64,000 nucleotides of DNA from an uncultured Gammaproteobacteria bacterium. GTDB taxonomy: Bacteria > Pseudomonadota > Gammaproteobacteria > DRLM01. Both the position numbers and the translations under genes were made by a program. Shown here piece by piece: positions 10,814-49,641 of the stretch. The notes beneath the pieces are model-generated. The model was not told the DNA's origin. It saw nothing but the letters and a program-made list of their open reading frames with translations, and did not search any database. Numbering within the stretch: the stretch's first letter is position 1; each line of letters opens with the position of its first letter. The stretch is taken from contig CAVSNY010000003.1 in the NCBI GenBank assembly GCA_963729605.1, positions 224,001 through 288,000 on the forward strand, read 5' to 3'.

Positions 10814-13676
10814 TTAAGATTTTCGGCGGCGTTTCGCCGGCATCACATTGGTTTCCTGCAACACCGGCCGCAGGAAATGACCGGTGTACGAGCTTGGATG
10901 TTGCGCCACCGCTTCGGGCGTGCCCGCCGTGAGGATTTCGCCGCCTTTGTCGCCGCCCTCGGGGCCGAGATCGATCAGCCAGTCGGCGGTTTTGATCACG
11001 TCGAGATTGTGTTCGATGATCACGATGGTGTTGCCCTGATCGCGCAGCCGGTGCAATACGTCCAGCAATTGCTGAATGTCGTGGAAGTGCAGGCCCGTGG
11101 TGGGCTCGTCGAGGATGTAGAGGGTGCTGCCGGTGCCGCGTTTGGAGAGTTCGCGCGACAGTTTCACCCGCTGCGCCTCGCCGCCGGAAAGGGTGGTGGC
11201 GTTCTGGCCGAGGCGGATGTAGGAGAGTCCGACGTCCATCAAGGTCTGCAATTTGTTTCGCACCATGGGCACGGCGTCGAAAAACGTCAGCGCGTCTTCG
11301 ACGGTCATGTCCAGCACCTCGAAAATATTTTTACCCTTGAAGCGGATCTCCAGGGTTTCGCGGTTGTAGCGTTTGCCCTTGCACACATCGCATGCTACAT
11401 AAATGTCCGGCAGAAAGTGCATCTCCACCTTGATGACGCCGTCGCCCTGGCAGGCCTCGCAGCGCCCGCCTTTGACATTGAAGCTGAAACGGCCGGGGCC
11501 GTAGCCGCGCGCGCGCGCCTCCTGGGTGCCGGAGAACAGATCGCGAATCGGCGTAAACAAACCGGTATAGGTCGCCGGATTGGAGCGCGGCGTGCGGCCG
11601 ATCGGGCTTTGATCGATATTGATGACCTTGTCGAATTGTTCGAGGCCGACGATCTCCGCGCAGGGCGCCGCCTCCTCGGTGCTGCCGTTGATGACGCGCG
11701 CGGCTTGATGATAAAGCGTATCGTTGACCAGGGTGGATTTGCCGGAGCCGGACACGCCGGTGACGCAGGTCATCAGCCCCACCGGGATGTCGGCGTCGAC
11801 GCCTTTTAAATTATTGCCGCTGGCGCCGCGTATTTTCAGTTGCCGCGCCGGGTCGTTGGGGGTGCGGGCCTGCGGCACGGCGATGCTGCGTTGGCCGCTG
11901 AGATATTGGCCGGTGAGCGAGGCGGGGTTGGCGATCACCGCCTGCGGCGTGCCTTGCGCGACGATCTGGCCGCCGTGGACGCCGGCGCCGGGGCCGATGT
12001 CCACCACGTGGTCGGCGGCGCGGATGGCGTCTTCGTCGTGCTCCACCACGATCACCGTGTTGCCGAGTTCGCGCAGGTGACGCAAGGTGTCGAGCAGGCG
12101 CTGATTGTCGCGCTGGTGCAGGCCGATCGAGGGTTCGTCGAGCATGTACATCACGCCGACCAAACCGGCGCCGATCTGGCTCGCTAAACGTATGCGTTGC
12201 GCCTCGCCGCCGGACAGGGTGTCGGCGCTGCGGTCGAGGGTGAGGTAATCGAGACCGACGTTCACGAGGAAGGTGAGCCGCTCGCCGACCTCGCTTAAGA
12301 ATCTTGTCCGCGATTTCACCGCGCCGGCCGGGCAGGATCAGGTCGTGAAAGAATTGCTGGGCGCGCTCGATGGGCATCGCGGTCACCTCGGGCAGGGTGC
12401 GGCCGGCGAGATAGACATGGCGCGCCTCGGTGCGCAGCCGCGTCCCTTCGCAACTGGGGCAAGGCTGGTTGCTGAGGTATTTCGCCAGTTCTTCGCGCAC
12501 CGCGTTGGATTCGGTCTCGCGGTAGCGGCGTTCCATGTTGGGGATGATGCCTTCGAAAGGATGTTTGCGGCGGGTCTTGGTGCCGCGTTCGTTCAAATAA
12601 ACGAATTCGATTTCCTCGTCGCCGCTGCCGTACAGAATCACCTGGCGGATCTTGGCCGGCACGTCCTCGAAGGGGTCTTCCACGTCGAAGCGGTAATGGC
12701 GCGCCAGCGATTGCAGCATGTGGAAGTAATACACGTTGCGCCGGTCCCAGCCGCGGATCGCGCCGCCGGCGAGGCTCAAGGTGGCATCGACGATCACTCG
12801 CGCCGGGTCGAAGAATTGCTTCACGCCCAGACCGTCGCAGGTCGGGCAGGCCCCCGCCGGGTTGTTGAAGGAGAACAGGCGCGGCTCCAGCTCCGGCAGA
12901 CTGTAGCCGCACAACGGACAGGCGAACTTGGCGGAAAATACCAAGTCGTCGCGCCGGGGTTCGTCGATGAAGGCGATGCGCGCCAGTCCTTCGCTCATGG
13001 CCAGCGCGGTTTCGAAGGAATCCGCCAGGCGTTGCTGCACGTCGGCGCGCACCTTGAAGCGGTCGATCACCACCTCGATGCTGTGTTTCTTGCGCAGATC
13101 CAGCTTGGGCACCTCGTCGAGTTCGGTCACCGCGCCGTCGATGCGGGCGCGCACGAAACCCTGCGCGCGTAATTCGTCGATGAGTTTGTGGTGCTCGCCT
13201 TTGCGTTCCTGCACCACCGGCGCGAGCAGCATCAGCTTGCTGCCCTCCGGCAGGGCCAGCACCTGATCGACCATCTGGCTGACGGTTTGCGCCGCCAGCA
13301 CGGTGCCGTGGTCGGGGCAGCGCGGTTCGCCGGCGCGGGCGAACAGCAGACGCAGGTAATCGTAGATTTCGGTCATGGTGCCGACGGTGGAGCGGGGGTT
13401 GTGCGAGGTGGATTTCTGCTCGATGGAAATCGCCGGCGACAGACCTTCGATATGGTCGACGTCCGGCTTTTCCATCATCGACAAAAATTGCCGCGCGTAA
13501 CTGGAGAGCGATTCCACGTAGCGCCGTTGGCCTTCCGCATAAATGGTGTCGAAGGCCAGCGAGGATTTGCCCGAACCGGACAGGCCGGTGATGACGATCA
13601 ATTTGTCGCGCGGCAAATCCAGGTCGATGTTTTTTAGATTATGGGTGCGTGCGCCGCGTATCCGAATACTTTCCAT
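10814..13676 (-). CDS. uvrA: Excinuclease ABC subunit A, split by one frameshift near 12295
   Basis: [21 protein letters not shown], zinc fingers, two LSGGEAQR motifs; ORFs 11811-13841 and 10814-12319 join at [15 protein letters not shown]. Confidence 0.95.
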
Positions 13677-15784: not shown

Positions 15785-16951
15785 ATGAATCTACACGAGT
15801 TTCAGGCCAAGCAATTGTTTGCCTTCTACGGCATCGCGGTACCGCCCGGCGGCGAGGCGGACAGCGCCGAGGCGGCGCGCGCGACGGCCAGCCGGCTCGG
15901 CGGCGAGGAGTGGGTGGTCAAGGCCCAGGTCCACGCCGGCGGCCGCGGCAAGGCCGGCGGCGTCAAACGGGCCAAGAGCCTCGATGACGTGGAGGCCGCC
16001 ACCCTGGCCCTCTTGGGCACGCGGTTGATCACTCACCAGACGCCCCCCGAAGGCTTGCCGATACACCATGTCTTGATCGAGCCGGTCTCGCAGGTCGTCC
16101 GCGAACTGTATCTCGGCGCGGTGATCGACCGCGCCCGCGAGCGGGTGGTATTCATGGCCTCCAGCATGGGCGGCATGGACATCGAACAGGTCGCCGCCGC
16201 CCAGCCGGAACAGATACTCACCCTCGCCGTCGATCCGGTGGTCGGCCTGCAACCCTATCAGGTGCGCCAGGTGGGTTTCGCGCTCAAGCTCGACATGCAA
16301 CAATTCGCCGCGCTGAACGCGGTGATGAACGGGCTGTACCGCCTGTTCATGGAGAAGGACGTCAGCCTGGTGGAGATCAATCCGCTGGTGGTGACCGGTA
16401 CCGGCGAGTTGATCGCGGTGGACGCCAAGCTCAATCTCGACGACAACGCCCTGTTCCGCCATCCCGATCTGCTGGCCTTGAAAGATCCCAGTCAGGAAAA
16501 CGAGATGGAATTGGAGGCCGAGAAACACGGCCTCAATTACGTGCCGCTCGACGGCAGTATCGCCTGCATGGTCAACGGCGCGGGCCTTGCCATGGCCACC
16601 ATGGACATTATCAAACTGCATGGCGGCGAGCCGGCCAATTTTCTCGACGTCGGCGGCGGCACCACCGCGGAACGGGTGGCCGAGGCCTTCAAGCTGATTC
16701 TTTCCGATAAAAAAGTGAAGGCGGTGCTGGTGAACATCTTCGGCGGCATCGTGCGCTGCGACCTTATCGCCGAGGGCATCATCAAGGCCGTGCAGGAAGT
16801 GCATGTGACGGTGCCGGTGGTCGTGCGGCTACAGGGCACCAATGTGGAAAAAGGCAAAGCGATGTTGAAGGAGAGCGGGCTCGCCATCACTGCGGCCGAC
16901 GATCTCAGCGGCGCCGCGGCGACGGTGGTCAAGCTGGCGGCGGGGGCCTGA
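15785..16951 (+). CDS. sucC: Succinyl-CoA synthetase beta subunit
   Basis: [45 protein letters not shown]. Confidence 0.97.
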
Positions 16952-27532: not shown

Positions 27533-28257
27533 GGCTCACTGACTTAAGTGATGAAGTAGATTTGATCTATATTTAGTTCCGGTGCCGTGTCGCGCGTCCG
27601 GGCAGGGCGAGAGTATAGAACCTCCGGACCGGCTGGGAAAGTACCGTCAGCGCATTTGCCGGCAAAGTCGAGGCATCCACTCCTAGACTTTGCGCGAATC
27701 GTGAACTATTACTTGTGCATGGCATTGGTAATACGGAGCGGATATATGGGGCGGTTGGTGGCTGTAAACGCGAATATCATCCTTTGGATTGAAACCTCTC
27801 GCGTGACACCTGGCCCGGCACTAGCGACTGACGCGTAATGTTATCTTGCCTCTCCTCCCTTGCGCCGACTACGTCCAGCGAATCCATGTTGGTTTTTTCA
27901 TCTCCAGTCCATCCCACCCTTTCCTTACGCATGCGGACGGCGTCTTGTTATGCGGCGGATTCACCGCGCAATGCGCGCCTTGCCATATTGCCGTACGTCT
28001 TAATTCAAAGTCATTCCCCATATCGAGGCCCTGTCCATCTTGATGATGGGATCGATTATCCCAGGGAGATTTTTATTGGCGCCCGGGAAGGCGAGCGGTT
28101 TAAAGAGCGGCTCGGAACGGGCGTTCCTTCTCCGTGCAACGGCGGCGGAACTAATCCATGTTGAAAGGCGCGGATGTTTGCGGCCATCGGGTGACCACCC
28201 AGCCCGAAAATATGCGACGGCTTGTTCAAGTACCCAGGAATGACTACAGGGGTGGAT

Positions 28258-30003
28258 ATGGATAAATCGGAGATAAAAGTGTTGCTGGTGGAGGGCAGTC
28301 AGACCGATGCCCAGCTGGTCCAGGACATGCTGCGGGAATCGAAAAGCGACGAGTTCGTGTTGACTCACGTCCAATCTTTGGCCGAGGCGCTGCAACAGGT
28401 GGTGAACGGGCGTTATGACGTGGTGTTATTGGATCTGGCCCTGCCCGACGCCAACGGTCTGTGCTCGGTGACGCACTTGCAGTCGGCACGACCGGAATTG
28501 CCGATCGTCGTGCTCACCAGTGTTAATGATCAAAGTATCGCTTTACAGGCGGTGCAGGCCGGCGCGCAGGATTATTTATTGAAAGGACAAGGCGACGGCC
28601 ATTTGCTGAGCCGCGCGCTGAGGTATGCCATCGAACGTAAGGAGCGGCAGGCCAAGCTGCTTTTTCTCGCGCAATACGATCAGCTCACCGAATTGCCCAA
28701 TCGCATCTTGTTCAAGGACAGACTCGAGGGGGCGCTCAAGCGCGCCGAACGCACCGGCGCGGCGGTGGCCTTGATGTTCATCGATCTCGACCGGTTTAAA
28801 TTCATCAATGATACCCTGGGCCACGAGTACGGTGACCAACTGCTCAAGGCGGCGGGCGGGCGGATCCGCGCGGCGGTGCGCGCGCAAGACACGGTGGCGC
28901 GCATAGGCGGTGATGAATTCACCGTGATTCTGGAAGGCATCACCCGCCCCGAAGACGCCGCGCCGGTGGCGGAAAAAGTACTCGCGCTGATGGGCACGCC
29001 GTTTAAACTCGGACAGCATCAAGTGACGGTGACCACCAGCATCGGTATCGCGGTGTATCCCGCCAACGCCAGCGACCCGCAAGAGTTGATACGCGCGGCG
29101 GACAACGCCATGTATCGGGTCAAGGCGCGCGGCCGCAATAGTTTTCAATTTTTCACGGCGGCCATGAACTCGAGCGTGACCGGCCGGGGCAGCATGGCCA
29201 CCTCCTTGCGCCACGCCCTGGCACGCAATGAATTTGAAATTCACTATCAGCCTCAAGTGGATTTGCGCAGCGGCGACGTGGTGAGTTTGGAAGCCCTGGT
29301 GCGTTGGCGGCATCCCACCATGGGCTTAATTCCGCCGGCGCGTTTTCTCAACCTGCAGGAGGAAAACGGCCAGATCGTCGCGATGGGTCAATGGTTGTTG
29401 CGTTCGGTTTGCGCACAGCTCATGGATTGGCAGAAACAAGGGACCGGGCCGCTGCGAGTGGCGGTCAATCTCTCGGCCCGTGAATTGAAAAATCCGGGAC
29501 TGACCACGATGCTGGCGGACATTTTGCAATACAGCGGTCTTTCTCCCTATTCGTTGGAGTTGGAAATCGCCGAAAACGTCTTGCGCGAGGGCGACGCGGC
29601 GGCGGTGAGCACCCTGTTTGCTTTAAAACAAATAGGTTTGCGGCTGGCGGTGGACGACTTCGGCAGCAGCGCCTCTTCGCTACGTTGTCTGCGTCGCCTG
29701 CATGTGGACACGCTTAAAATCGATCGGAACTTGATCGGCGAGGTGAATGACGGCGACGAGGAGGAGATGGCGGTGGTGGATGCGATCATCGCCGTGGGGC
29801 ACCATATGGATTCTCAGGTAGTCGCGAAATCGGTGGAGACGACCAACCAATTGGCGATGCTGTACGCCCATGGTTGCGACGGCGCGCAGGGATTTCTGTT
29901 CAGCGAGGCCTTGCCCGCGGACTCGGTGACCCTGTTGCGGGCCGAGCAAAGCCGCTGGGGTTATGCCCAGCATTTGCGACGGGAGTCGTCGCTTTCCCAA
30001 TAA
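28258..30003 (+). CDS. REC-GGDEF-EAL c-di-GMP signalling protein; EAL domain degenerate
   Basis: REC (LLDLALPD, AGAQDYLLK), RAQD I-site plus GGDEF, EAL motif but DDFGSSASS and AKSVET. Confidence 0.92.
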   Translation: MDKSEIKVLLVEGSQTDAQLVQDMLRESKSDEFVLTHVQSLAEALQQVVNGRYDVVLLDLALPDANGLCSVTHLQSARPELPIVVLTSVNDQSIALQAVQAGAQDYLLKGQGDGHLLSRALRYAIERKERQAKLLFLAQYDQLTELPNRILFKDRLEGALKRAERTGAAVALMFIDLDRFKFINDTLGHEYGDQLLKAAGGRIRAAVRAQDTVARIGGDEFTVILEGITRPEDAAPVAEKVLALMGTPFKLGQHQVTVTTSIGIAVYPANASDPQELIRAADNAMYRVKARGRNSFQFFTAAMNSSVTGRGSMATSLRHALARNEFEIHYQPQVDLRSGDVVSLEALVRWRHPTMGLIPPARFLNLQEENGQIVAMGQWLLRSVCAQLMDWQKQGTGPLRVAVNLSARELKNPGLTTMLADILQYSGLSPYSLELEIAENVLREGDAAAVSTLFALKQIGLRLAVDDFGSSASSLRCLRRLHVDTLKIDRNLIGEVNDGDEEEMAVVDAIIAVGHHMDSQVVAKSVETTNQLAMLYAHGCDGAQGFLFSEALPADSVTLLRAEQSRWGYAQHLRRESSLSQ

Positions 30004-36697: not shown

Positions 36698-37138
36698 CTA
36701 TTTATTTTCCCCCGGCGCCACGGTGATGGTGATTTTTTCCGAAACGACCGGCGGTGTGTGCGGCAGATGGTGTTGGTCGCCCAGGATGAGTTGCAGCGTG
36801 TGTTTACCCGGCGGCAGTTCGAGGCGGGTCTCGGTCTGGCCGCCGCCGAAGTGACGATGCTGGTTGTCCTTGGGTATGGGCTGATCCAGCGGCGGCAGGG
36901 TATCTACATCGATCAATAAATGGTGGTGACCGGTATTGGCTTGCTCCACGCCGGCGGGCGCCACACCCATATTGCTCAAACCAAACAGCACGGTCACCGG
37001 GCTGGTAACCGTTGCGCCGTTGGCGGGGGAGATGATGTAGACCTTGGCCCCTTCCGGTGCGACCGAGGCCGCGAAACCAGGGGCGGCGAATGCCAGGGTT
37101 GTGCAAATAACGACTAGCAGACTGCTGATTGTTTTCAT
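36698..37138 (-). CDS. Secreted DUF4399 domain protein
   Basis: Signal peptide, GVAPAG..NTGHHHLLID, HFGGGQTE..LPPGKHTLQL. Confidence 0.88.
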   Translation of the reverse strand: MKTISSLLVVICTTLAFAAPGFAASVAPEGAKVYIISPANGATVTSPVTVLFGLSNMGVAPAGVEQANTGHHHLLIDVDTLPPLDQPIPKDNQHRHFGGGQTETRLELPPGKHTLQLILGDQHHLPHTPPVVSEKITITVAPGENK

Positions 37139-37414
37139 GGGGTTTCCTTGGGGTGCTGGCCAAACAAAAAGAGGGACAGGATCGATATTTTTATCATACC
37201 GCCGGAGGATTCTACACTTCCTGGTCATTGATAGAGGAAAAAACTGTCACGACAAGGAGTAAACCCCATGCTGGTTAAAATCGGCATCTGGCCGGACGGC
37301 CTTGAATAAAAAGTCGTTCTATTAAAAAGCCGAATAATCCTCGCCTTAAAGCAGAGGCGGGCCGAGTTTTTGCCTGAAAAAGTGAGGTTTAACACGGTAG
37401 CCTGTTGCTCCGGC

Positions 37415-37441
37415 TAAAGCTTTATCGCCCCCGGCCGATTC
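37415..37441 (+). promoter_or_regulatory. Sigma28 (FliA)-type promoter
   Basis: TAAA-N15-GCCGATTC against consensus TAAA-N15-GCCGATAA, about 30 nt upstream of the 37474 start. Confidence 0.6.
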
Positions 37442-37473
37442 TATCCGGTAAGTAGTCTGCAGGGGGATCTTAT

Positions 37474-38466
37474 ATGTTGTATTTCAAATTACCCTCAAGC
37501 TCTAGATCCCTACAGTTAGTTTCGGTAGTCATGAAGGCTACAACTTTGCTGTTTTTTCCGCTGGGCATTTTTGTGGCGCATGCCGCTTTCGATCTCAATT
37601 GGGCGCGTGACGAAGGAGGTTATGTCAATAACGATGCCCATGTTGCTTGTGACATGAGCTATATCTCGGATAATTGTGGTGGTTTCGGCACCCTGAATGG
37701 CTCTCACGTTGATGGTACCGCGTTTTTCCAGCAGCAATTCGATAATGGGGGTCAAACCTATTTCCATCTCATCGTGGGCGATCATACAAGAGATGCCTTC
37801 GCGCAAGAGGTGATCATCAAGGCAAACGCGGGCAACAATTACTGGGACAATCGCAGCAATAACATCGCGGTGTCGCATACCAGAGCCAACACCAGCGACC
37901 AAACCTTCAGTATGTCGCAACCCTATAGCAGCGATTCGACCCGGACCGGTACGGGCTCCGGCAATCCCAATAGCGTCATCATGCGCCAGGTGATCGACAG
38001 CGGTGAAATCGTGCAAGAATTCTTGAAGGACTCCTTTACCCAAAAACCCAAGATCACCCAAACCATCACCGGTGCCGGGGCGCAAGCGGGCATGGTGAGC
38101 ACGGTGGTCATCGACATGAGCGGGAAGAATTATTCGGACCTGACACCGATTACCGCGGGTTCGTTCACCAACACCCTTACTCTGAGCGGCGCGCTCATCA
38201 ACGGGACCAGCGGCAACTTCAACAACAGCACCGACGCGGATTCCAATTACCTGACCGCGGGCGGCTTCACCTACACAACGGGTTCGGGCACGGGCGGCAG
38301 CGCGGGCAATTACACCTACATGGACGCGGCGGACGACGCGAATCCCATATTCGAGCCTTATAACCTCAACTGGCAAGGTTATTGTAAACCCTCCGAGAAT
38401 CCCAATTGGGGTAACGGCGCTTGCAATGGCGGCGGCAGTGGTGGCGGTGGCGGTTGGGGTTGGTAG
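37474..38466 (+). CDS. Secreted Gly/Ser/Thr/Asn-rich protein with C-terminal GGGGGWGW tail (GW-tail family member 1); start 37474 or 37531
   Basis: AGGGGGA RBS, signal peptide ending AHA, two Cys pairs, ends NGGGSGGGGGWGW. Confidence 0.8.
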   Translation: MLYFKLPSSSRSLQLVSVVMKATTLLFFPLGIFVAHAAFDLNWARDEGGYVNNDAHVACDMSYISDNCGGFGTLNGSHVDGTAFFQQQFDNGGQTYFHLIVGDHTRDAFAQEVIIKANAGNNYWDNRSNNIAVSHTRANTSDQTFSMSQPYSSDSTRTGTGSGNPNSVIMRQVIDSGEIVQEFLKDSFTQKPKITQTITGAGAQAGMVSTVVIDMSGKNYSDLTPITAGSFTNTLTLSGALINGTSGNFNNSTDADSNYLTAGGFTYTTGSGTGGSAGNYTYMDAADDANPIFEPYNLNWQGYCKPSENPNWGNGACNGGGSGGGGGWGW

Positions 38467-38491
38467 CGTTTGTCTCTCGGGAATGCTTTAA

Positions 38492-38623
38492 GGAAGCGTT
38501 GAATCATTCCATCCTGGAATTTTCAGAGCACGAAAAACGCAACATGTCATTTTTGCTTTTCTTCATTTTCAATGGCTAACCGCCATTGAAAATGGCGGTA
38601 CCTCTGAATAAATAAAAGGTTCC
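38492..38623. mobile_element. 132-bp MITE (IS5-like ends) flanked by a TTAA duplication
   Basis: Imperfect TIRs GGAAGCGTTGAATCATTC and (rc) GGAACCTTTTATTTATTC; TTAA at 38488-38491 and 38624-38627; internal 13-bp hairpin CATTTTCAATGGC/GCCATTGAAAATG. Confidence 0.65.
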
Positions 38624-40459
38624 TTAATCTAAACCCACCGGTAGCGGAGGCTGTACAAGATCAGGTCTGTTCTTCTGCTCGCTCTTCAGTAGCTGGTGGG
38701 CGCCGATATACAACTCATCCATGGCGGTATTCATGAAACAGCGGAAAGCATCTTCCGGCGTGCATGCGATGGGTTCGCCGCGCACATTGAACGACGTATT
38801 GACGATCACCCCGTAACCGGTCAATTGCTTGAAGCGGGTGATCAAGGCGTGATAGAGCGGATGGGTATCGGCATGCACGGTTTGAACCCGCGCCGAATAA
38901 TCCACATGCGTGACCGCGGGAATATCGGAGCGCGCGATGTTGACCTGATCGAGTCCGCGAATATCGCGTTCGGCATCGGTGCGTTCACGGCGTCGCGAGC
39001 TTTTGACCGGCGCGACCAACAGCATATAGGGACTGTCCACCGCCAAATCGAAATATTCGGCCACGTCTTCGCGCAACACCGAAGGCGCGAACGGGCGAAA
39101 CGACTCGCGGTATTTTATTTTCAGATTCATCACCGATTGGGTGGAGGGTGAGCGCGGGTCGCCTAAAATGCTGCGTGCGCCCAAGGCGCGCGGACCAAAT
39201 TCCATCCGACCTTGAAACCAGCCGATGACCTTGCCGTCGGCGATGGCGCGGGCGGCCTGATCGACCAATTGCGTTTCATCGAGCGCATGGTAATGCGCAC
39301 CGAGACGATCGAGGTCGGCCTTGATTTCTGGGTCGCCGTACGACGGTCCGAGATAGGCGCCATGCATGCCGTCGCGACCGCTGCGTGACGCCCTTTGGCC
39401 TTCGCATTGGAGGTGATAGACTGCCAACGCGGCGCCGACCGCGCCGCCGGCATCACCGGCCGCGGGCTGGATCCACAATCCATCGTATAAACCGCTTTGC
39501 AATAATTTACCGTTGGCCACGCTATTGAGCGCGACGCCGCCCGCCAAACACAGATTCGCCATCCCGTATTCATGGCGGAGGGCGTTTGCCAATTTCAATA
39601 CCACCTCCTCGGTCACCACTTGGATCGAACGGGCCAGGTCCATATCCATTTGCGTGATTTCCGTCTCGGGGCGGCGCGGACCGCGTCCGAATAAGCGATC
39701 GAAATGGCGATTGGTCATGGTGAGACCGGTGCAGTAGTTGAAATAGCGCATGTTCAAACGAAATGAGCCGTCGGCCGCGATCTCGATGAGATGCCGGCGG
39801 ATGAGGTCGGTGTAAACCGGTTCACCGTACGGCGCCAGGCCCATCAGTTTGTATTCGCCGGAGTTGACTTTAAAGCCGGTGAAATAGGTGAAGGCCGAAT
39901 ACAGCAGGCCTAGGGAATGGGGAAAATGGATCTCTCGGATCGGGCGCAGCGTCCGGCCTTTGCCGATCATCACCGAGGTGGTGGTCCATTCACCCACGCC
40001 GTCCATGGTGAGAATCAATGCCTCATCGAACGGCGAGGGATAAAACGCGGAGGCGGCGTGGGAAAGGTGATGTTCCGAGAATAACAACCGTTTTGCGTCA
40101 AAATCCGGGGCGAGGGCCTGCAAGCCGCGGATCAATTCCCGTTTTTGGAAGAGCTTCTCCTTGAGCCACAGCGGCATGGCTTTGACGAAGGAACGGAAGC
40201 CGGCTGGCGCGAAGGCGTGGTAGGTCTCGAGCAGCCGTTCGAATTTGAGGAAGGGTTTTTCGTAAAACACTACCCATTGGATTTCATCGAGGCCGATGCT
40301 GGCTTCGCGCAGGCAGTATTGTATGGACCGTGCGGGAAAACCGGCATCGTGTTTGACGCGAGTGAAGCGCTCCTCTTGCGCCGCGGCGATAACGTCGCCA
40401 TCGCGGATCAGCGCCGCGGCGCTATCGTGGTAATAAGCGGAGAGACCGAGAATCCACAC
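38624..40459 (-). CDS. O-carbamoyltransferase, NodU/CmcH/TobZ family (SxtI-like)
   Basis: ILGLSAYYHDSAAAL, QEERFTRVKHD, EHHLSHAASAF, GEYKLMGLAPYG, AGGVALN, EFGPRALG, KYRESFRPFAP, NTSFN. Confidence 0.95.
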   Translation of the reverse strand: MWILGLSAYYHDSAAALIRDGDVIAAAQEERFTRVKHDAGFPARSIQYCLREASIGLDEIQWVVFYEKPFLKFERLLETYHAFAPAGFRSFVKAMPLWLKEKLFQKRELIRGLQALAPDFDAKRLLFSEHHLSHAASAFYPSPFDEALILTMDGVGEWTTTSVMIGKGRTLRPIREIHFPHSLGLLYSAFTYFTGFKVNSGEYKLMGLAPYGEPVYTDLIRRHLIEIAADGSFRLNMRYFNYCTGLTMTNRHFDRLFGRGPRRPETEITQMDMDLARSIQVVTEEVVLKLANALRHEYGMANLCLAGGVALNSVANGKLLQSGLYDGLWIQPAAGDAGGAVGAALAVYHLQCEGQRASRSGRDGMHGAYLGPSYGDPEIKADLDRLGAHYHALDETQLVDQAARAIADGKVIGWFQGRMEFGPRALGARSILGDPRSPSTQSVMNLKIKYRESFRPFAPSVLREDVAEYFDLAVDSPYMLLVAPVKSSRRRERTDAERDIRGLDQVNIARSDIPAVTHVDYSARVQTVHADTHPLYHALITRFKQLTGYGVIVNTSFNVRGEPIACTPEDAFRCFMNTAMDELYIGAHQLLKSEQKNRPDLVQPPLPVGLD

Positions 40460-40460
40460 G

Positions 40461-40610
40461 TCAAAAAACGGTGTAGATGAAGGGGGCGAGGGCGCTGCCT
40501 TGTACGAAGACGATCAGAGCGCCGAGCAGTAACAAGACCATGATGATGGGCAACAGCCAGATTTTTTTTCGGGCACGCATGAAGGCCCATAATTCGCGGA
40601 TAAAATCCAT
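40461..40610 (-). CDS. 49-aa membrane peptide, DUF5989/SxtK-like, C-terminal FIYTVF (missing from the ORF track)
   Basis: Translated by hand: MDFIRELWAFMRARKKIWLLPIIMVLLLLGALIVFVQGSALAPFIYTVF; overlaps the upstream stop (TGATG) and ends 1 nt before the carbamoyltransferase GTG. Confidence 0.9.
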   Translation of the reverse strand: MDFIRELWAFMRARKKIWLLPIIMVLLLLGALIVFVQGSALAPFIYTVF

Positions 40611-40990
40611 CAGAATTGGTCCTTGAAGGAACTAAAGGTGTTTTCTTCGCGTGAAGTCCAATAACTGGGTGCGGGTCCGGCGCGCAGCTTGAGGGTGTCA
40701 CGGCCGATCATTCTAAATACCAACGCGAGGGGCGTGATCAATAAAAAAAAGGCCAGCGCCAGTAGCAGCCAGGTGTTGAGCGTACCCAGCACATGGCCCA
40801 CCGCCAGCCATACTTTGAGCAGCGGTTTTAGAACGATGGGTGCGGCGAGGGCTAGCACCGCCAAGCCTGCCGCCGCCATCAGCCAGGAATCGGCCGGTGC
40901 TCGGCCATCGAGTGTCGGCCATAGCGCTATCGCCCCGGCGATGCCCGCCAGGATGAGTCCGAATGATCTTTCTTGCCGGTATCCAGCCAT
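40610..40990 (-). CDS. SxtJ-family membrane protein
   Basis: RSFGL, about three TM segments, LKPLLKVW..GHVLG..N, FFLLITP, SYW, terminal KDQF. Confidence 0.88.
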   Translation of the reverse strand: MAGYRQERSFGLILAGIAGAIALWPTLDGRAPADSWLMAAAGLAVLALAAPIVLKPLLKVWLAVGHVLGTLNTWLLLALAFFLLITPLALVFRMIGRDTLKLRAGPAPSYWTSREENTFSSFKDQF

Positions 40991-41235
40991 TTTAAGTTCA
41001 CTTTGAATAGTTCATCGAGACGGCGTTCGGTTGGCGCTAACGGCAAGCGGCTCCGGGGCGATCCCTCCGTTTTTCTATAACGGGAGAGGGCGCGGCTCGC
41101 TTGAACGAATCCTGACCTACCCGTAAAAATATTATTCCGATCAAATAGAAGTCTACCGTAGAGTTCCGGTACAATGCCAGAATTGGCGCCGGCCTCAATC
41201 CACCACAACGTCGAATTCATGTTTTGATCTCCGCT

Positions 41236-43110
41236 ATGCGCAATGTATCTGCCAATCGCAGGAAGCTGCTGCTTTATACCGTAGTGCTGTTTTTTCCGGT
41301 GGCGTTTTTTTTAGTTCTGGAAAGCGGGCTGCGTTATTTTGACTATGGGGAGAATCTGGATTTATTCGTCCCGGCGCCCGCCGGGTTCGCCGATAAAAAC
41401 TTTCTAATGACCAACCCGGAGATCGCCCGGCGTTATTTCTCGTCCCAGTCGTATCGGCCACGCCCGCCGGATGAATATTTCCTCCAAGAGAAGCCTAAGA
41501 ATGGTTATCGGATCTTCGTGCTCGGCGAATCGACGACGGCTGGTTGGCCTTATCCCAATAACGTGATGTTTTCACGGATGCTCAATCAGCGCTTGGCGGA
41601 GGCGTTTCCCGAACGGGACATCGAGGTGGTGAATACCGCCCTCGCCGCGGTGAACAGTTTCACTTTGAATGATTTCATGGATGAGATTCTGGCGCAGCGA
41701 CCCGACGCCATTTTGATATATGCCGGCCACAATGAATTTTATGGCGCGCTGGGCGCCGGTTCCACCGAATCTTTAGGGCGGGTGCGCTGGGTGGTCAAGG
41801 CGTATCTGGCTTTGTTGCGTTTCAAGACCGTGCAGTTATTGCGTGACGTCGTCAATAATTCCAGCGGGTGGATAGCCGGCTTGGTATCGGATAAATCGCC
41901 GCAGGATCCGTACCCCACTTTGATGGGTCGCATGATAGGCGAAGCCAGTATTCCCTACGGCAGCGCAACCTACCAGGTGGCCAAGCGGAATTTTCAGGAA
42001 AATCTGCGGGAGATATTCCGCAAGGCCCAGCGAGCCGGTGTGCGGGTGCTGGCCAGTGATCTGGTGAGCAATGTGCGGGATCACCGGCCGTTTGCCGCGG
42101 TCCATGAAGGCGATGAGCTATCCGCCGATGTGATCTTCGAATGGGCAAAATTGCTCGATAAAGAACAGATGTACGGCATGGCCAGGACGGCTTATTACTG
42201 GGCGAAGGACATGGACGGCCTCCGTTTCCGCGCCTCCGAAGAATTCAACGATGTCATCCATCAGGTGGCGGCCGAGTTTAAAGTGCCGGTGGTACCGATG
42301 AAGTCTTATTTTGAAGCCGTTTCGCCGCAAGGGATCATCGGCGCCAATTTGATGCTGGAACATTTGCATCCCAATAGCGATGGTTATTTGTTGATGAGCG
42401 AAGCCTTTTTTCAGGGAATGCGTCAACATCAATTTATCAGTGCGACGTGGGATGCAAATAAAATCAGGCCTCTTGCTTTCTACGCGCAATATTGGGGCAT
42501 TACTGAACTTGATCGGGCTCTCGGCGCCTTTCGGGTCATGCAGCTGATGGATCATTGGCCGTTTCAGCCGCCTTCATCACCCACGCGTATCTTCGCGGAC
42601 TATCAACCTCAGACCAAGGCGGAAGAACTTGCTTACAGGGTTGCCAAAGAAGAGTTGGACTTTTTTCAGGCGCATGTCGAACTCGCGGCTTATTATTTTC
42701 AGCAGGGACAAAATGAACGGGCATTCGCGGAATATCAAGCGTTGATAAATGCCGTACCTTATGACGCCCATGTTTATCTCAGCGCCGCAAGCGTGTTGCT
42801 GCAACAAAGACAATATGAGCAGGCATTACCTTTGCTTTACGGCTCGCTTACCCTCAAAGACAGCAGTACCGCGAACAAATGGATAGGCCAGATCCATTTA
42901 TATAATAATCGGCCGCAGGAGGCCCTGAAGTTCCTTGAAAAAGCCTTTGCCCTGGAACCGAAAGATACCCAATTGCTTTACAACCTCGCCGGAGCCTATG
43001 GGCTAACCGGCCAGAAGGATAATGGCCGTCGGTTATTCGCGCATTTGGAAAAGCTCGCGCCGGACTTTCCCCGACTGGATCAGCTGAAACAATTATTGAA
43101 TCAACCTTGA
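41236..43110 (+). CDS. Membrane-anchored SGNH/GDSL-family protein with C-terminal TPR repeats
   Basis: N-terminal TM; block I FVLGESTTAG, block III YAGHNE, block V LEHLHPN; TPR-like helices at the C-terminus. Confidence 0.87.
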   Translation: MRNVSANRRKLLLYTVVLFFPVAFFLVLESGLRYFDYGENLDLFVPAPAGFADKNFLMTNPEIARRYFSSQSYRPRPPDEYFLQEKPKNGYRIFVLGESTTAGWPYPNNVMFSRMLNQRLAEAFPERDIEVVNTALAAVNSFTLNDFMDEILAQRPDAILIYAGHNEFYGALGAGSTESLGRVRWVVKAYLALLRFKTVQLLRDVVNNSSGWIAGLVSDKSPQDPYPTLMGRMIGEASIPYGSATYQVAKRNFQENLREIFRKAQRAGVRVLASDLVSNVRDHRPFAAVHEGDELSADVIFEWAKLLDKEQMYGMARTAYYWAKDMDGLRFRASEEFNDVIHQVAAEFKVPVVPMKSYFEAVSPQGIIGANLMLEHLHPNSDGYLLMSEAFFQGMRQHQFISATWDANKIRPLAFYAQYWGITELDRALGAFRVMQLMDHWPFQPPSSPTRIFADYQPQTKAEELAYRVAKEELDFFQAHVELAAYYFQQGQNERAFAEYQALINAVPYDAHVYLSAASVLLQQRQYEQALPLLYGSLTLKDSSTANKWIGQIHLYNNRPQEALKFLEKAFALEPKDTQLLYNLAGAYGLTGQKDNGRRLFAHLEKLAPDFPRLDQLKQLLNQP

Positions 43111-43346
43111 TAAGGACACGAAGTTGCTAACGGACCTTATGTGCGTGTGCCTTAAAGTAAGGCTAGTTGTATTGGAATAGTGGAGACTGTTTCTGTCGCG
43201 GGAGACGGATGTGACCCAAGTTTCGTATTTGGGCTGAGAGTACGAACACTTCGTTACCGCCCCCTCCAGTATGATCCGTGGAGGGCGATAACAAAGTATT
43301 TTACAAAGGTGCTGAAAGGATCGTGGCAGTCTGACGTAAAAATTTA

Positions 43347-44435
43347 CTACCAACCCCAGCCGCCGCTGCCACCACCACTACTACCCCCCTGGTATACGGG
43401 CTTGACGCCGAATGGATCGGTCACCCACGTAAACGGTCCGGTGCCGCTAATTGAGCTGGTAGCAATGCGGTTTTTATTATCGCTGCGATTATCATAGGCC
43501 TGAAAACCGAAGCCCGATTGCGCGACCCAGGTAACCTTGACATCGTCGCCCGGCTGCCAAGTGATGGTGCCGCCACTGCCGCTACTGTCGCTGCTGCTTC
43601 TTCCGCCGCTACCGCCAAAACCACTGCTACCGCTGCGGCTGTTGCCGCCGCTCAGGCTGGCGCTGCCCGATTTGGTGAGCATGTCGCCTGCGACTTCCCG
43701 CATGACGAACATGTTCACGCTGCCGCCGCCATTCCAGCCGAAACCACCACCACCCCAGCCACCACCACCACCGCCACTGCCGTTAAATTGAGAACCATTG
43801 ACGGTCTGGCCGATGTCCAATTTAAAGCCGGTACGGTTACCGTTCGCGTCCAGATTGGCTAGATATTTGAAATCACCCACCATATCAACCGTAGAGCTTA
43901 TCGCGGCGCCGCCAAAGTTCTGGGTGATTTCGATATTGGGTTGTCCGGCAACGGCCGCCCAGCCGGTGTTGATCTGCGCGGTCATCAAGAACTTATCGTT
44001 GCCCGTGCCTCTGACTACCTGCGAAACGGATAAACCCGAGGTTTCACCGCTGGTGGTGGTGGTTGCTTCCGATTCGCCGGCGCTGGTGGTCCATTGCGAG
44101 ATAAAGCCGCCTTGTTTGACGAAAGATTCCGAAGCGAAGGCAACCGTCCCCGGCAAGCCGCTGGCATTGGAGTCGGTGAGTATGCTCTGCATATACCGGC
44201 CATTATTATTACCCGTGCCGGCGGTGATCTCTCTCTGCAACAGTCCGGGCGCCGACGTGGGCGTACCGCAGAGCGCACCGGAGGCGCAGGTCGCCGAGAT
44301 GGCGCCATTATTAACCGACCAGCCACCAAACGGTATCGGCGGCCCACCGGTGACGGTACCCGGGACTACCAGGGGAGTGGCGGCAACCAGCCAGAGCGCC
44401 TTATGTGTGAATAAAGATTTATTATGCTTATTCAT
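43347..44435 (-). CDS. Secreted Gly/Ser-rich protein with C-terminal GSGGWGW tail (GW-tail family member 2)
   Basis: Signal-like N-terminus; clear paralogue of 44477-45436; internal GGGGGGWGGGGFGWNGGG loop. Confidence 0.85.
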   Translation of the reverse strand: MNKHNKSLFTHKALWLVAATPLVVPGTVTGGPPIPFGGWSVNNGAISATCASGALCGTPTSAPGLLQREITAGTGNNNGRYMQSILTDSNASGLPGTVAFASESFVKQGGFISQWTTSAGESEATTTTSGETSGLSVSQVVRGTGNDKFLMTAQINTGWAAVAGQPNIEITQNFGGAAISSTVDMVGDFKYLANLDANGNRTGFKLDIGQTVNGSQFNGSGGGGGGWGGGGFGWNGGGSVNMFVMREVAGDMLTKSGSASLSGGNSRSGSSGFGGSGGRSSSDSSGSGGTITWQPGDDVKVTWVAQSGFGFQAYDNRSDNKNRIATSSISGTGPFTWVTDPFGVKPVYQGGSSGGGSGGWGW

Positions 44436-44476
44436 GGGTTACCTCGAATTGGGTTCCATGTTGCTTAAAAGATTCA

Positions 44477-45436
44477 TTACCAACCACCACGACCACTACC
44501 GCTGCCGCTGCTACTGGCGCCGCCGCTGCCATTTGCCGGCATGGCAGGTGCCGTTCCAAACGGCGGGTTCACCCAAGTGAAGGGCGCGGGATTGGATTCG
44601 GATTGGTTACCGATGGGGGCGATCGTGTCGCTCAGGTTGTCATAATTCTGCCAACTCAGATTGCCACCTGATGCATCGCCTTCGAAGTCGACCCGCTGTC
44701 CGACCCAGACTACCTGGATAACGTCTCCGGCCTTCCAAGTCATTTTCTTGTTGCCGGGCAAGGTAGCCGTGCCGGCCGCCTTAAGCATATCGCCACCGAC
44801 CCGGCGCATTACGAACATTTGATCATCCACCTGTTTGGTGGTGACGGGTTCACTGAAATAAGAACTTAATTCAATCAAGGTGCCGGTTTGTAAACCGTTG
44901 TTGTCGTTGTTACCGGCGATATGGGTTGTATCATTGAATTTTTGCCCGGCACTGGTCGATTCAGTGATTTTTTGAACGATGTCGATGCTTGGCGTGCCTG
45001 GCGTGGCGGCCCAGCCTCGGTTGATTTGAACCGCTGAGTCAAAAATTCGGGTTTGCGCGGTGGTGATGCTTTCACTATGCAGCATCTGTTTGTCGGAAAT
45101 TCCGAAGGAGCTTGGCGCGGTGGTTGTGCCCATTTTGATGAAATTTTCATCCGAAAACGGCAAACCGGTGGCGGGGACGCCCGTTGATGTTGAACCTGTG
45201 ACGATGGTTTGGACGAAGGCTTGGCCGCTTAAGGGATCTTCGACGCGCCGCTGTAAAAAGCCCGGTCCGCTGCTGAGTTCGGAACATTGAAAACCGGTTC
45301 CGCATGTCGCGGCAACCCCGCCATTGCTGACAGACCACTGATCAAACGGTGTGGGCGCACCACCAAAGGCGGATGATGCACATAAAGCTGCCAAGCCCAC
45401 TGGCACCAGCCCAGAGAAATGCAATCGCCAAGTCAT
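44477..45436 (-). CDS. Secreted protein with C-terminal GSGRGGW tail (GW-tail family member 3)
   Basis: Signal peptide ending AFG; shares PF..WSV.NG...ATC, QIN.GWAA, MFVMR.V.GDML, YDN.SD and PFTWV..PFG with member 2. Confidence 0.85.
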   Translation of the reverse strand: MTWRLHFSGLVPVGLAALCASSAFGGAPTPFDQWSVSNGGVAATCGTGFQCSELSSGPGFLQRRVEDPLSGQAFVQTIVTGSTSTGVPATGLPFSDENFIKMGTTTAPSSFGISDKQMLHSESITTAQTRIFDSAVQINRGWAATPGTPSIDIVQKITESTSAGQKFNDTTHIAGNNDNNGLQTGTLIELSSYFSEPVTTKQVDDQMFVMRRVGGDMLKAAGTATLPGNKKMTWKAGDVIQVVWVGQRVDFEGDASGGNLSWQNYDNLSDTIAPIGNQSESNPAPFTWVNPPFGTAPAMPANGSGGASSSGSGSGRGGW

Positions 45437-45649
45437 GTTTACCCCCTTAGCTGGCTTCTAAGCTTATAAATGCATTTGATGATGCTCAGGCCAGTTTTAA
45501 TTTTCTAATAACTGCGACGAAACTATCATAATCGGATGGTCATTGCAATTGGGTAGAGCGGGGGGTGCTTCCAATCGCCTTTAATAATAATATGAAACAA
45601 CGATGTAATTTAGCCTATTTTGGTATTTAAAAATCTTACGGATTAAGGG

Positions 45650-46027
45650 GTGTGTGTGGTTATCACGGGTGTGGTGCATGCTGGGGTCTTGGTGGCGGAT
45701 ATAACCCGTTCCTTGGGGTTTTATCATGATGTGTTGGGCATGCATTTGGACAATAGCCGCCCCAATTTAGGTTATCCAGGCGCATGGTTGCGGGCCGGTC
45801 GGCAACAGATTCATTTAATGGAGTTGCCTAATCCGGATCCTGTGGTAGGTCGTCCGCTTCACGGTGGGCGCGATCGGCATATCGCTTTGACCGTGAACGA
45901 TGTCGAGGCGCTGCGTCGTCGTTTAGCGGCGGCGGACATTCCTTGCACTTTGAGTAAATCGGGAAGGAAAGCCGTATTCTGCCGTGACCCGGACGGCAAT
46001 GCCTTGGAGTTTGTTGAGCAGGACTAA
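45650..46027 (+). CDS. VOC/glyoxalase family protein
   Basis: HAGVLV..FY..VLG, YPGAWL, QIHLMEL, HGGRDRH, FCRDPDGNALE. Confidence 0.9.
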   Translation: MCVVITGVVHAGVLVADITRSLGFYHDVLGMHLDNSRPNLGYPGAWLRAGRQQIHLMELPNPDPVVGRPLHGGRDRHIALTVNDVEALRRRLAAADIPCTLSKSGRKAVFCRDPDGNALEFVEQD

Positions 46028-47714: not shown

Positions 47715-47945
47715 GGCTCTGTTGACATTTTGCCAGTCCGGGTGGGATATAGGCGGAATTTTGAAGGACGCGATGAACAGATCAGTACTTACGGATAAGC
47801 AGTGGGAAATAATACGGGGTTATCTGCGCAATCATCCGCGCGTCTATGTTGGAAATGAAGAGCAGTGTCGGCAGTTTTTGGACGCGGTATTGTGGATACT
47901 CAGAAGTGGCGGACAATGGCGGCTCTTACCCAAAGAGAAAGGCGA
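47715..47945 (+). mobile_element. IS5-family remnant (left end plus truncated transposase N-terminus)
   Basis: TA-GGCTCTGTTGACAT end; ATG 47773 MNRSVLTDKQWEII..FLDAVLWILRSGGQWRLLP (DUF4096-like); homology lost after about 47945. Confidence 0.8.
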
Positions 47946-48149
47946 TAGGCATCCTCTTGCCGTCTGTTTCTTCGCATCCTCCGGTCCGATTGCCGCAGAT
48001 TGCTATCCGCCAATCAGCACCAGCCGCGTATCAAAAAGTGCTTGCTCATCACCCCCTGAACGCACCGCAGGATGGCGACAAGCAACACAACGAGCAGCCC
48101 TTCAACCTGACCGAGAATCCGCCGATGACCACCGCGATTCACGCGCAGC

Positions 48150-49641
<1,492 letters not shown>

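Follow-up and report, generated by a model that had tools for sequence, protein, structure and literature searches.

What is a carbamoyltransferase gene doing in translational coupling with two small membrane-protein genes, next to an anchored SGNH protein and among secreted proteins that end in similar Gly-rich tails? The question is raised by seven genes lying between 37.4 and 45.5 kb of the window, by which we mean the whole 64,000-nucleotide stretch analysed here (GenBank assembly GCA_963729605.1, contig CAVSNY010000003.1, positions 224,001 to 288,000 of the forward strand), from an uncultured Gammaproteobacteria bacterium. Our answer, held tentatively and at a little below an even chance, is that the locus is an inner-membrane carbamoyl relay resembling the acyl-tyrosine shuttles, working without MBOAT or AT3 proteins and having the three secreted proteins, GW1, GW2 and GW3, as its clients. 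The features concerned, with open reading frames (ORFs) supported by Pfam where stated, are as follows.

37474..38466, plus strand: GW1, secreted protein of the GW1 family (ORF reading)
38624..40459, minus strand: predicted ATP-dependent O-carbamoyltransferase, 611 aa (Pfam Carbam_trans_N and Carbam_trans_C)
40461..40610, minus strand: DUF5989 microprotein, 49 aa (Pfam DUF5989)
40610..40990, minus strand: SxtJ-family small membrane protein, 126 aa (Pfam SxtJ)
40991..41223: intergenic region, 233 bp long, from which the SxtJ operon and the SGNH-TPR gene diverge
41224..43110, plus strand: SGNH-TPR protein, 628 aa (Pfam Lipase_GDSL_2 and TPR families)
43347..44435, minus strand: GW2, secreted protein of the GW2/3 family (ORF reading)
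44477..45436, minus strand: GW3, second member of the GW2/3 family (ORF reading)

All of these ORFs are present at their expected coordinates. The minus-strand operon runs from SxtJ through DUF5989 to the carbamoyltransferase, and the DNA itself reveals tight translational coupling: the SxtJ stop and the DUF5989 ATG overlap by one base (TGATG), and a single base separates the DUF5989 stop from the GTG start of the carbamoyltransferase. The original prediction for this DNA, made by a model from the letters and a list of ORFs, had described seven ORFs with a coupled operon divergent from the SGNH-TPR gene, and this layout was confirmed by the ORFs, the Pfam matches and the DNA reading.

The 49-aa peptide matches DUF5989 (PF19451) over its entire length (residues 1-49 of 49; E 3.9e-26, 91.3 bits against a cut-off of 27). 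Hydropathy shows a basic N-terminus (RARKK) followed by a single hydrophobic stretch, a transmembrane (TM) helix, which would therefore leave the N-terminus inside and the C-terminus outside, and the peptide closes with the hexapeptide FIYTVF (40464-40481), which includes Tyr46. PMC12148441 describes an FXYXXF hexapeptide in DltX and at the C-termini of bacterial MBOATs: its Tyr becomes acylated and then donates the acyl group to an SGNH protein, at the Ser of the latter. FIYANF was the peptide of PatA tested in that work. With one TM helix and a C-terminal FXYXXF containing an invariant Tyr, the DUF5989 peptide has the make-up of a DltX-type microprotein. It was not detected as Pfam DltX (PF12459): a Pfam scan at E up to 10 lists DUF5989 alone, in a search where the HMMER filters drop most matches above about 0.1. 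Judged by its sequence, the peptide is a tyrosine shuttle and a candidate for carrying a carbamoyl group.

Conservation of the hexapeptide is nearly complete. Across 44 DUF5989 loci (the window and 43 others), strict FxYxxF is present in 42, the remaining two having V or L at the first position, and the Tyr and terminal Phe are kept in every one. An alignment of 33 rows has K15, K16, W18, P21, G30, P43, Y46 and F49 invariant. A profile search of 1.84 billion representatives yielded 5919 DUF5989 proteins at E <= 0.001, and among the best 150 of these the hexapeptide was terminal in 121, stood before an unconserved extension in 24 and was absent from 5.

The 611-aa protein contains both the Kae1-like N-terminal domain (Carbam_trans_N, PF02543; E 5.6e-105, 352 bits, cut-off 24) and the YrdC-like C-terminal domain (Carbam_trans_C, PF16861; E 1.6e-71, 239.7 bits, cut-off 27), each above its curated cut-off. 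Its best solved relatives are NovN (E 1.1e-91), GdmN and TobZ, and it is predicted to be an O-carbamoyltransferase of the NovN/GdmN/TobZ (NodU/CmcH) type; the score against the NCBIfam NodU equivalog, 127.9 bits, lies far under the cut-off of 1000, and the enzyme is therefore not NodU itself. No hydrophobic segment passes the TM threshold in the hydropathy analysis. Residues 68-105 form a segment seven residues longer than in NovN and GdmN. Carbamoyltransferases linked to the module are unusually conserved, with a mean column identity of 70% over 35 sequences. At three loci, L085 (G796:C37, 7884-9601), L059 and L070, the enzyme appears split into two ORFs, possibly by a frameshift or an assembly error. 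The 126-aa protein matches SxtJ in Pfam (PF19588; E 3.5e-11, 44.2 bits, cut-off 24.4) and has three hydrophobic stretches; L54 and P87 are invariant in its alignment and P51, W61, D98 and Y110 nearly so.

These three proteins were also predicted together, as three chains with an alignment of their own each, in three runs with three controls. The interaction prediction score from aligned errors (ipSAE) was 0.61 in the three runs and 0.01 for the best control. In calibration, 58 of 80 solved complexes reached this ipSAE mark, as did 2 of 110 mismatched pairs; the calibration holds only roughly here, since the alignments were our own and the prediction had three chains. The runs have at least 82% of their contacts in common, and the predicted local distance difference test (pLDDT) of the partners is at least 71. 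The confident contacts of DUF5989 lie in its residues 3-37, which meet residues 70-104 of the carbamoyltransferase as well as residues 69-88 and 120-126 of SxtJ. Structure prediction had been proposed as a check on the original prediction, and its outcome supports, as a model, a membrane complex of carbamoyltransferase, SxtJ and DUF5989.

The divergent gene encodes a protein with Pfam matches to Lipase_GDSL_2 (E 1.9e-14) and to TPR families, consisting of an anchor, an SGNH domain with a large helical insert and a C-terminal TPR region at about residues 460-628. The one N-terminal hydrophobic anchor (about residues 15-35) is preceded by R6, R12, R13 and K14, and the catalytic part would therefore face the periplasm. 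Over 35 homologues there is no variation at S103 (codon 41530-41532, plus strand), N170, H380 or H382, and very little at E379. An AlphaFold2 model of residues 40-450 (pLDDT 86.6) has a clear SGNH fold, best matched by the GDSL esterase 7e16 (Z 17.8, root-mean-square deviation (rmsd) 2.5, 199 residues aligned), and the fold together with the conserved block I Ser, block III Asn and block V His identifies the SGNH domain. The membrane-anchored SGNH protein expected from the sequence is thus borne out by a single N-terminal anchor, the four basic residues before it and an intact Ser/His site. The same model aligns with PatB 7tjb (Z 14.6, rmsd 3.2, 187 aligned) and OatA 6vjp (Z 13.5, rmsd 2.2, 150 aligned); fold ranking was tried as a discriminator between transferase and hydrolase and failed to separate the two. 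In SGNH O-acyltransferases, an atypical block II turn and a hydrophobic wall favour transfer over hydrolysis, according to PMC12148441. A sequence search against the Protein Data Bank (PDB) returned only generic TPR matches, including a weak one to PEX5 (E 4e-4), and one weak esterase match. The SGNH-TPR family comprises at least 2221 proteins at E <= 1e-30 and extends over several phyla, with records named KSB1, Nitrospiraceae and Thermodesulfobacteriota.

How widely does this module occur, and with which partners? DUF5989 was found in 64 of 401 sampled Gammaproteobacteria, a tally that includes one unpublished genome (G053), and in 56 of them above the curated cut-off; the module of DUF5989, SxtJ and carbamoyltransferase is present in about 15% of the sample. 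At the 44 loci the carbamoyltransferase and SxtJ each occur 38 times, in two gene orders. Among the 82 immediate neighbour ORFs of 43 DUF5989 loci, Lipase_GDSL_2 is present in 14, and each family outside the SGNH/GDSL and TPR groups in 3 at most. This dominance of Lipase_GDSL_2 makes SGNH the one recurrent partner.

The module had been called MBOAT-independent, and the genomes agree with this. The source genome (3.48 Mb, 94.5% complete) has no MBOAT (PF03062) and no AT3 match. In the 56 genomes with DUF5989 above the cut-off, a tally that includes three unpublished genomes, an MBOAT occurs somewhere in 14 and nowhere in 42, the overlap expected under independence being 8.1, and in only one of the 56 (G112) does it lie within 5 kb of DUF5989. 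At that locus (L043, G112:C38) the MBOAT is at 11394-12215 and DUF5989 at 16128-16274, and the arrangement may be an unrelated O-acylation cluster or a hybrid system.

The candidate clients are the three secreted proteins, which have N-terminal hydrophobic leaders and Gly/Ser-rich tails ending in GW.

38428-38463, plus strand: GW1 tail, GGGSGGGGGWGW
43350-43388, minus strand: GW2 tail, GGSSGGGSGGWGW
44480-44530, minus strand: GW3 tail, GSGGASSSGSGSGRGGW, with GSGSGRGGW as final residues

GW1 probably starts at the ATG at 37534 (MKATTLL...). No Pfam or NCBIfam match was found for any of the three. GW2 and GW3 are paralogues (31% identity, E 4e-39), and GW2 also has internal Gly/Trp-rich loops. 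BLASTP finds no similarity of GW1 to GW2 or GW3; comparison of profiles gives a 40-column N-terminal core shared by GW1 and GW2/3 (hhalign probability 95.8%, E 7e-9). The earlier description of three related secreted proteins consequently stands for GW2 and GW3, and for GW1 only as far as this core reaches. The GW1 family counts 63 proteins, and in 36 of these the tail is Gly-rich with a W among the three final residues. For the GW2/3 family only 12 relatives turned up in 5.8 billion proteins, of which 10 carry the terminal tail.

In the order to which the source organism belongs (12 genomes, the window genome being G000), 11 genomes have the GW2/3 family, many of them more than one copy of it, and 4 have DUF5989. 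Of the GW2/3-family ORFs recovered there, only the copies beside the module bear the Gly-rich GW tail, namely in the window and in G006 at locus L001, which is fully syntenic with the window. The remaining GW2/3 copies, among them three more in the source genome and a second pair each in G006, G004 and G007, stop soon after the conserved PFGxxP. In G004, a member of the same genus, DUF5989, the carbamoyltransferase and the tailed pair are jointly missing. Two GW1-family paralogues located elsewhere in the source genome are likewise untailed. In another genus (G013), two GW1 homologues directly follow SGNH-TPR and DUF5989 and end in GGWGGGGGW and GGGGWGGSR.

Among the 43 other DUF5989 loci, Gly-rich W tails occur only at L001, L038 and L080, the three with a close SGNH-TPR protein (51% identity or more); a crude tail filter also flagged Ser-rich ORFs at L053 and L070, which are not Gly-rich and are regarded as noise. 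At L080, from a different family of the class, two GW1-family genes with the ends GGSNGW and GGGFGW follow the carbamoyltransferase. In the order of L080 a close SGNH-TPR is present in 11 of 17 genomes, and the GW1-family genes at the 11 loci examined include the following.

Ending in ...GW: five loci, L084, L086, L087, L089 and L092
Ending in ...GWD: two loci, L088 and L091
Ending in ...NGF: one locus, L085, beside the split carbamoyltransferase
Ending in ...GGR: one locus, L094

Ten metagenome GW-family proteins, all tailed, have a longest contig of exactly the same size as that of a close SGNH-TPR protein (15331, 7886, 5277, 5968, 12007, 145593, 154003, 3021, 68279 and 8254), and this identity of size, used as a proxy, suggests that the two genes share contigs. 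Seven other loci with distant, untailed GW2/3 homologues have no module nearby, and the genomes behind two of them, L002 and L003, have no DUF5989. Gly-rich GW-type tails therefore track the module rather than the protein family: the tailed genes co-occur with it in other genomes and untailed paralogues occur without it, on a point that had been set in advance as one that could refute the original prediction.

A second, longer type of SGNH-TPR protein (about 706 aa, 25% identical to the window protein) lies directly after DUF5989 at two loci.

10854-13121 of L089 (G800:C1): longer SGNH-TPR type
10001-12293 of L076 (G344:C12): longer SGNH-TPR type

L076 had been considered as a fifth locus with a close SGNH-TPR and was rejected at this identity of 25%; the true orthologue in its genome is at a contig edge, beside three tailed genes. 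At L089 the longer protein and DUF5989 stand within the same cluster as a close SGNH-TPR, SxtJ, the carbamoyltransferase and two tailed genes, an arrangement in which one shuttle peptide may serve two SGNH enzymes.

It could be argued that the GW genes and the module merely ride on one mobile island and have no functional tie. The G+C content of the island, 53-57%, is below the roughly 61% of the genome, the joint absence of module and tailed genes from G004 in the same genus would follow from such a history, and few independent lineages are involved. However, gene order and strand vary: GW genes flank the module on both sides in the window, whereas in the second order all of them lie downstream of the carbamoyltransferase; two distantly related families are both tailed beside the module; and the tail is restricted to the copies adjacent to it. 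Hitch-hiking has in our view only a slim chance of being the explanation.

Could the tail instead be a targeting or matrix signal? The GW proteins would then be beta-sheet proteins of the envelope or outer membrane, in which tail and loops serve sorting, anchoring or self-assembly, while the TPR-SGNH protein chaperones or trims them and the carbamoyl group goes to another envelope molecule. The AlphaFold2 model of GW1 (pLDDT 71.5) is indeed all-beta, its best weak matches are outer-membrane barrels (PapC with Z 8.1, rmsd 5.8 and 126 residues aligned; porins, TamA and BamA with Z 5-7), and the tails terminate in an aromatic residue. Internal Gly-aromatic motifs are more abundant in tailed members (median 5, n=65) than in untailed ones (median 1, n=67), a comparison that is not independent of ancestry. 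A similar tail is also found on an unrelated protein: a crude scan of the source genome for ORFs of at least 80 aa with a Gly/Ser-rich tail ending in W flagged six, of which three are GW1-GW3, more than chance would give at one locus, and a fourth is a TPM-domain membrane protein, the tails of the last two being rich in Ser/Ala/Arg/Pro and not in Gly. This protein has a TPM_phosphatase domain (E 4.7e-43), a C-terminal TM segment and the Gly-rich tail ...GGGGASGRW (contig C6, 459498-460484, minus strand), and a second TPM gene adjoins it. On the other hand, Z values of 8 or less are within the background of the tool, and Foldseek found nothing in the PDB for the GW1 model at E <= 0.001; we accordingly make no claim that GW1 is an outer-membrane barrel. 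A search of the ESM Atlas offered no lead, with a best score of 0.76 for GW1 and no usable match for GW2. Untailed paralogues of the same family in the same genomes show that the fold is independent of the tail, and the tail follows the module, not the family. A targeting or matrix role as the main explanation appears improbable to us.

The relay that we favour would proceed as follows. TobZ-type enzymes convert carbamoyl phosphate and ATP into carbamoyl-AMP, and the cytoplasmic carbamoyltransferase would do the same here. Its helical residues 70-104 would dock on the SxtJ-DUF5989 membrane complex, as modelled, and the carbamoyl group would be placed on Tyr46 of the FIYTVF motif of DUF5989. 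The periplasm-facing SGNH domain could then accept the group on Ser103 and hand it to an acceptor. Co-occurrence points to the neighbouring secreted, beta-rich GW proteins as the acceptors, or as obligate partners, in this lineage, and the TPR domain of SGNH-TPR would recognise their Gly-rich, Trp-ending tail. We infer the chemical steps, the topology, the recognition of the tail by the TPR domain and the acceptor. The trans-membrane carbamoyl relay of the original prediction is partly supported, by a shuttle motif that had gone unmentioned there, by the complex model and by the N-terminal anchor of the SGNH protein, and its chemistry is putative. An envelope polymer, also suggested there as the target, finds no support in the surroundings: the ten flanking ORFs scanned (28-49.5 kb) are for glycerol metabolism, DUF4399, glyoxalase, RNase D and the like.

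Several observations weigh against this relay. The carbamoyltransferase is cytoplasmic, yet Tyr46 is predicted to face the periplasm. The confident contacts of the complex model involve the N-terminal and TM helices of DUF5989 and leave the tyrosine tail outside, and the SxtJ alignment contains no conserved His, Ser or Cys that could replace the MBOAT histidine. Ordinary esterases outrank PatB and OatA in the SGNH fold searches, and only about one DUF5989 locus in three has an SGNH gene as a direct neighbour. With regard to the clients, G013 (84% complete) has tails, SGNH-TPR and DUF5989 but no detectable carbamoyltransferase, an enzyme that is present in G344, G798, G806 and G796; G766 has the trio and two distant SGNH-TPR genes, with no GW tail within 20 kb; and at two of the L080-order loci, L090 and L093, the close SGNH-TPR stands alone, with neither trio nor GW gene. 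A close SGNH-TPR was found in only 2 of the 401 genomes of the phylum-wide sample, the source genome included, and the association of tail and module comes from few independent events (two orders, five genera). The SGNH-TPR family, with at least 2221 members, is far larger than the GW families (63 and 12); therefore, the GW proteins are not a general acceptor, and other SGNH-TPR lineages must use other acceptors. The fold of GW1 has no significant solved match by Foldseek or structure comparison, and the TPM protein of the source genome, which is unrelated to the module, carries a similar Gly-rich tail ending in GRW, so that this type of tail is not unique to the module.

Part of this evidence favours the main rival, in which the carbamoyltransferase is simply tethered to the membrane: SxtJ and DUF5989 anchor the enzyme at the inner leaflet, a lipid-linked sugar or small molecule is carbamoylated before export, SGNH-TPR is a periplasmic hydrolase (a decarbamoylase or esterase, as proposed for SxtL), and the GW proteins, encoded next door, bind what is produced or make use of it. 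The tyrosine tail untouched in the complex model, SxtJ lacking conserved catalytic residues, hydrolases as the top SGNH fold matches and most DUF5989 loci having no SGNH gene among their immediate neighbours all agree with it. In saxitoxin synthesis, SxtI was likewise suggested to act with the help of SxtJ and SxtK in the cell and SxtL to be a decarbamoylase, both put forward in PMC2679770 as proposals without biochemistry. Tethering, however, leaves unexplained a C-terminal hexapeptide with invariant Tyr and Phe of the same form as a proven acyl shuttle, SGNH as the sole recurrent neighbour, and tails confined to the copies adjacent to the module; furthermore, glycan-synthesis genes are not among the ten flanking ORFs. 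We consider the tethered enzyme rather unlikely.

If the carbamoyl relay is compared with known systems, the closest are DltB-DltX-DltD and PatA-PatB. They share with it a microprotein of one TM helix, or a C-terminal arm, that closes in an FXYXXF whose Tyr never varies; an SGNH partner anchored in the membrane at its N-terminus, with its Ser/His site on the outer side (predicted for the present protein); and a group activated by ATP in the cytoplasm, as would be the case here. In contrast to them, the source genome has no MBOAT or AT3, and the donor would be a soluble carbamoyltransferase of the TobZ/NovN type together with the three-helix SxtJ; the group carried would be carbamoyl, not acyl; DUF5989 is undetected as Pfam DltX; and the SGNH protein bears a TPR domain. 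Dlt serves teichoic acid D-alanylation and Pat peptidoglycan O-acetylation, whereas the candidate acceptors here are C-terminally tagged proteins and not a glycopolymer.

TobZ, NovN and GdmN (PDB 3ven, 9s2t and 7vyj) have the two-domain architecture of the window enzyme, aligned over residues 8-585. They are stand-alone cytoplasmic enzymes of antibiotic tailoring, whereas the present branch is always paired with SxtJ and DUF5989, and the longer helical segment at 68-105, seven residues beyond NovN and GdmN, is the predicted docking site. For the tail, a precedent is offered by PEX5-PTS1 and Hop-EEVD, in which TPR proteins are receptors for C-terminal peptides. The likeness consists of a TPR domain beside a conserved motif at the extreme C-terminus of candidate clients; the tail here differs in being Gly-rich and Trp-ending, and the TPR domain in being fused to an SGNH enzyme and predicted to be periplasmic.

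The saxitoxin sxtI-sxtJ-sxtK-sxtL block has to be considered as well. The small protein of the window matches the SxtJ Pfam family itself, and the families given for SxtI and SxtL are those matched by the carbamoyltransferase and the GDSL/SGNH gene of the locus; the 165-bp sxtK we take, by assumption, to encode a DUF5989 member. That block then consists of the same four gene types (PMC2684587 and PMC2679770), and the locus might be read as a tailoring block for a saxitoxin-like natural product. The SGNH protein of the window is, however, membrane-anchored and TPR-fused, and the ten flanking ORFs are housekeeping or regulatory and include no saxitoxin core genes, as had been stated earlier for this DNA. 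The presence of DUF5989 in 64 of 401 Gammaproteobacteria is also wider than a toxin pathway would predict. We give a saxitoxin-like block hardly any credence.

Considering these comparisons, we read the locus as a probable new form of tyrosine acyl-shuttle/SGNH system that brings with it a candidate protein tag not seen before. A literature search found no paper on DUF5989, and for FXYXXF it found only the PatA paper and its preprint. The searchable literature, outside which Schultz et al. 2023 falls, does not link DUF5989, SxtK or the carbamoyltransferases to an acyl shuttle. A stronger claim, that the locus represents the first dedicated extracytoplasmic protein carbamoylation, with a tyrosine-carbamate shuttle free of MBOAT and AT3 and loaded by the docked ATP-dependent carbamoyltransferase, a periplasmic SGNH-TPR transferase and a "poly-Gly...GW" client tag, strikes us as doubtful, if worth stating.

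Were the carbamoyl relay true, its implications would be broader. Two bacterial routes are known, an MBOAT with SGNH and an AT3 fused to SGNH, and both proceed through acyl-tyrosine (PMC12148441). The locus, taken with the several thousand DUF5989 proteins that have the hexapeptide, suggests a third, in which both the loader and the chemical group are different; if the stronger claim also held, DUF5989, SxtJ and the carbamoyltransferase would amount to a general route of this kind for carrying an activated one-carbon acyl-type group through the membrane. SxtJ and SxtK, listed as "unknown" from the first description of the saxitoxin cluster onwards, would acquire a role open to testing, and so would a very widespread and highly conserved branch of carbamoyltransferases acquire a role. 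Furthermore, the link between tail and module provides a concrete candidate substrate and a candidate recognition tag.

Some observations concern the surroundings of the locus. The ten flanking ORFs, none of which is for envelope polymers, encode an FGGY kinase, GDPD, a DAO oxidoreductase, DUF4399, a glyoxalase, RNase D, an insertion sequence (IS) fragment, an aminotransferase, a GGDEF-EAL regulator and an aldolase fused to a short-chain dehydrogenase. Consensus scanning found no promoter in the 233-bp divergent intergenic region, and over 37200-45700 it was uninformative: promoter-like sites numbered 4, where 7.0 were expected, and terminator-like sites 16, where the expectation was 10.6 +/- 3.3. 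Metatranscriptome contigs from three runs in two studies overlie parts of the GW1, GW2, GW3, SxtJ and SGNH genes at 90-99% identity, which is at most a hint of transcription; they may stem from copies in other organisms or from DNA in the libraries.

The DUF4399 secreted-protein gene (36698-37228, minus strand) adjoins GW1, and in an unrelated Chromatiales metagenome-assembled genome a DUF4399 gene (L002, 11255-11827, minus strand) adjoins a GW2/3-family homologue that has no tail; the conservation of this pairing does not depend on the carbamoyl module. The response-regulator/GGDEF/EAL protein is encoded at 28222-30003 (plus strand), about 7 kb upstream of the island. The IS4/5-type transposase fragment (DUF4096, 47722-48156) coincides with a sharp step in G+C content from about 55% to about 70% near 48 kb, and the class-III aminotransferase adjacent to it appears as two overlapping ORFs in different frames (48229-49008 and 48893-49555) and may be frameshifted or disrupted.

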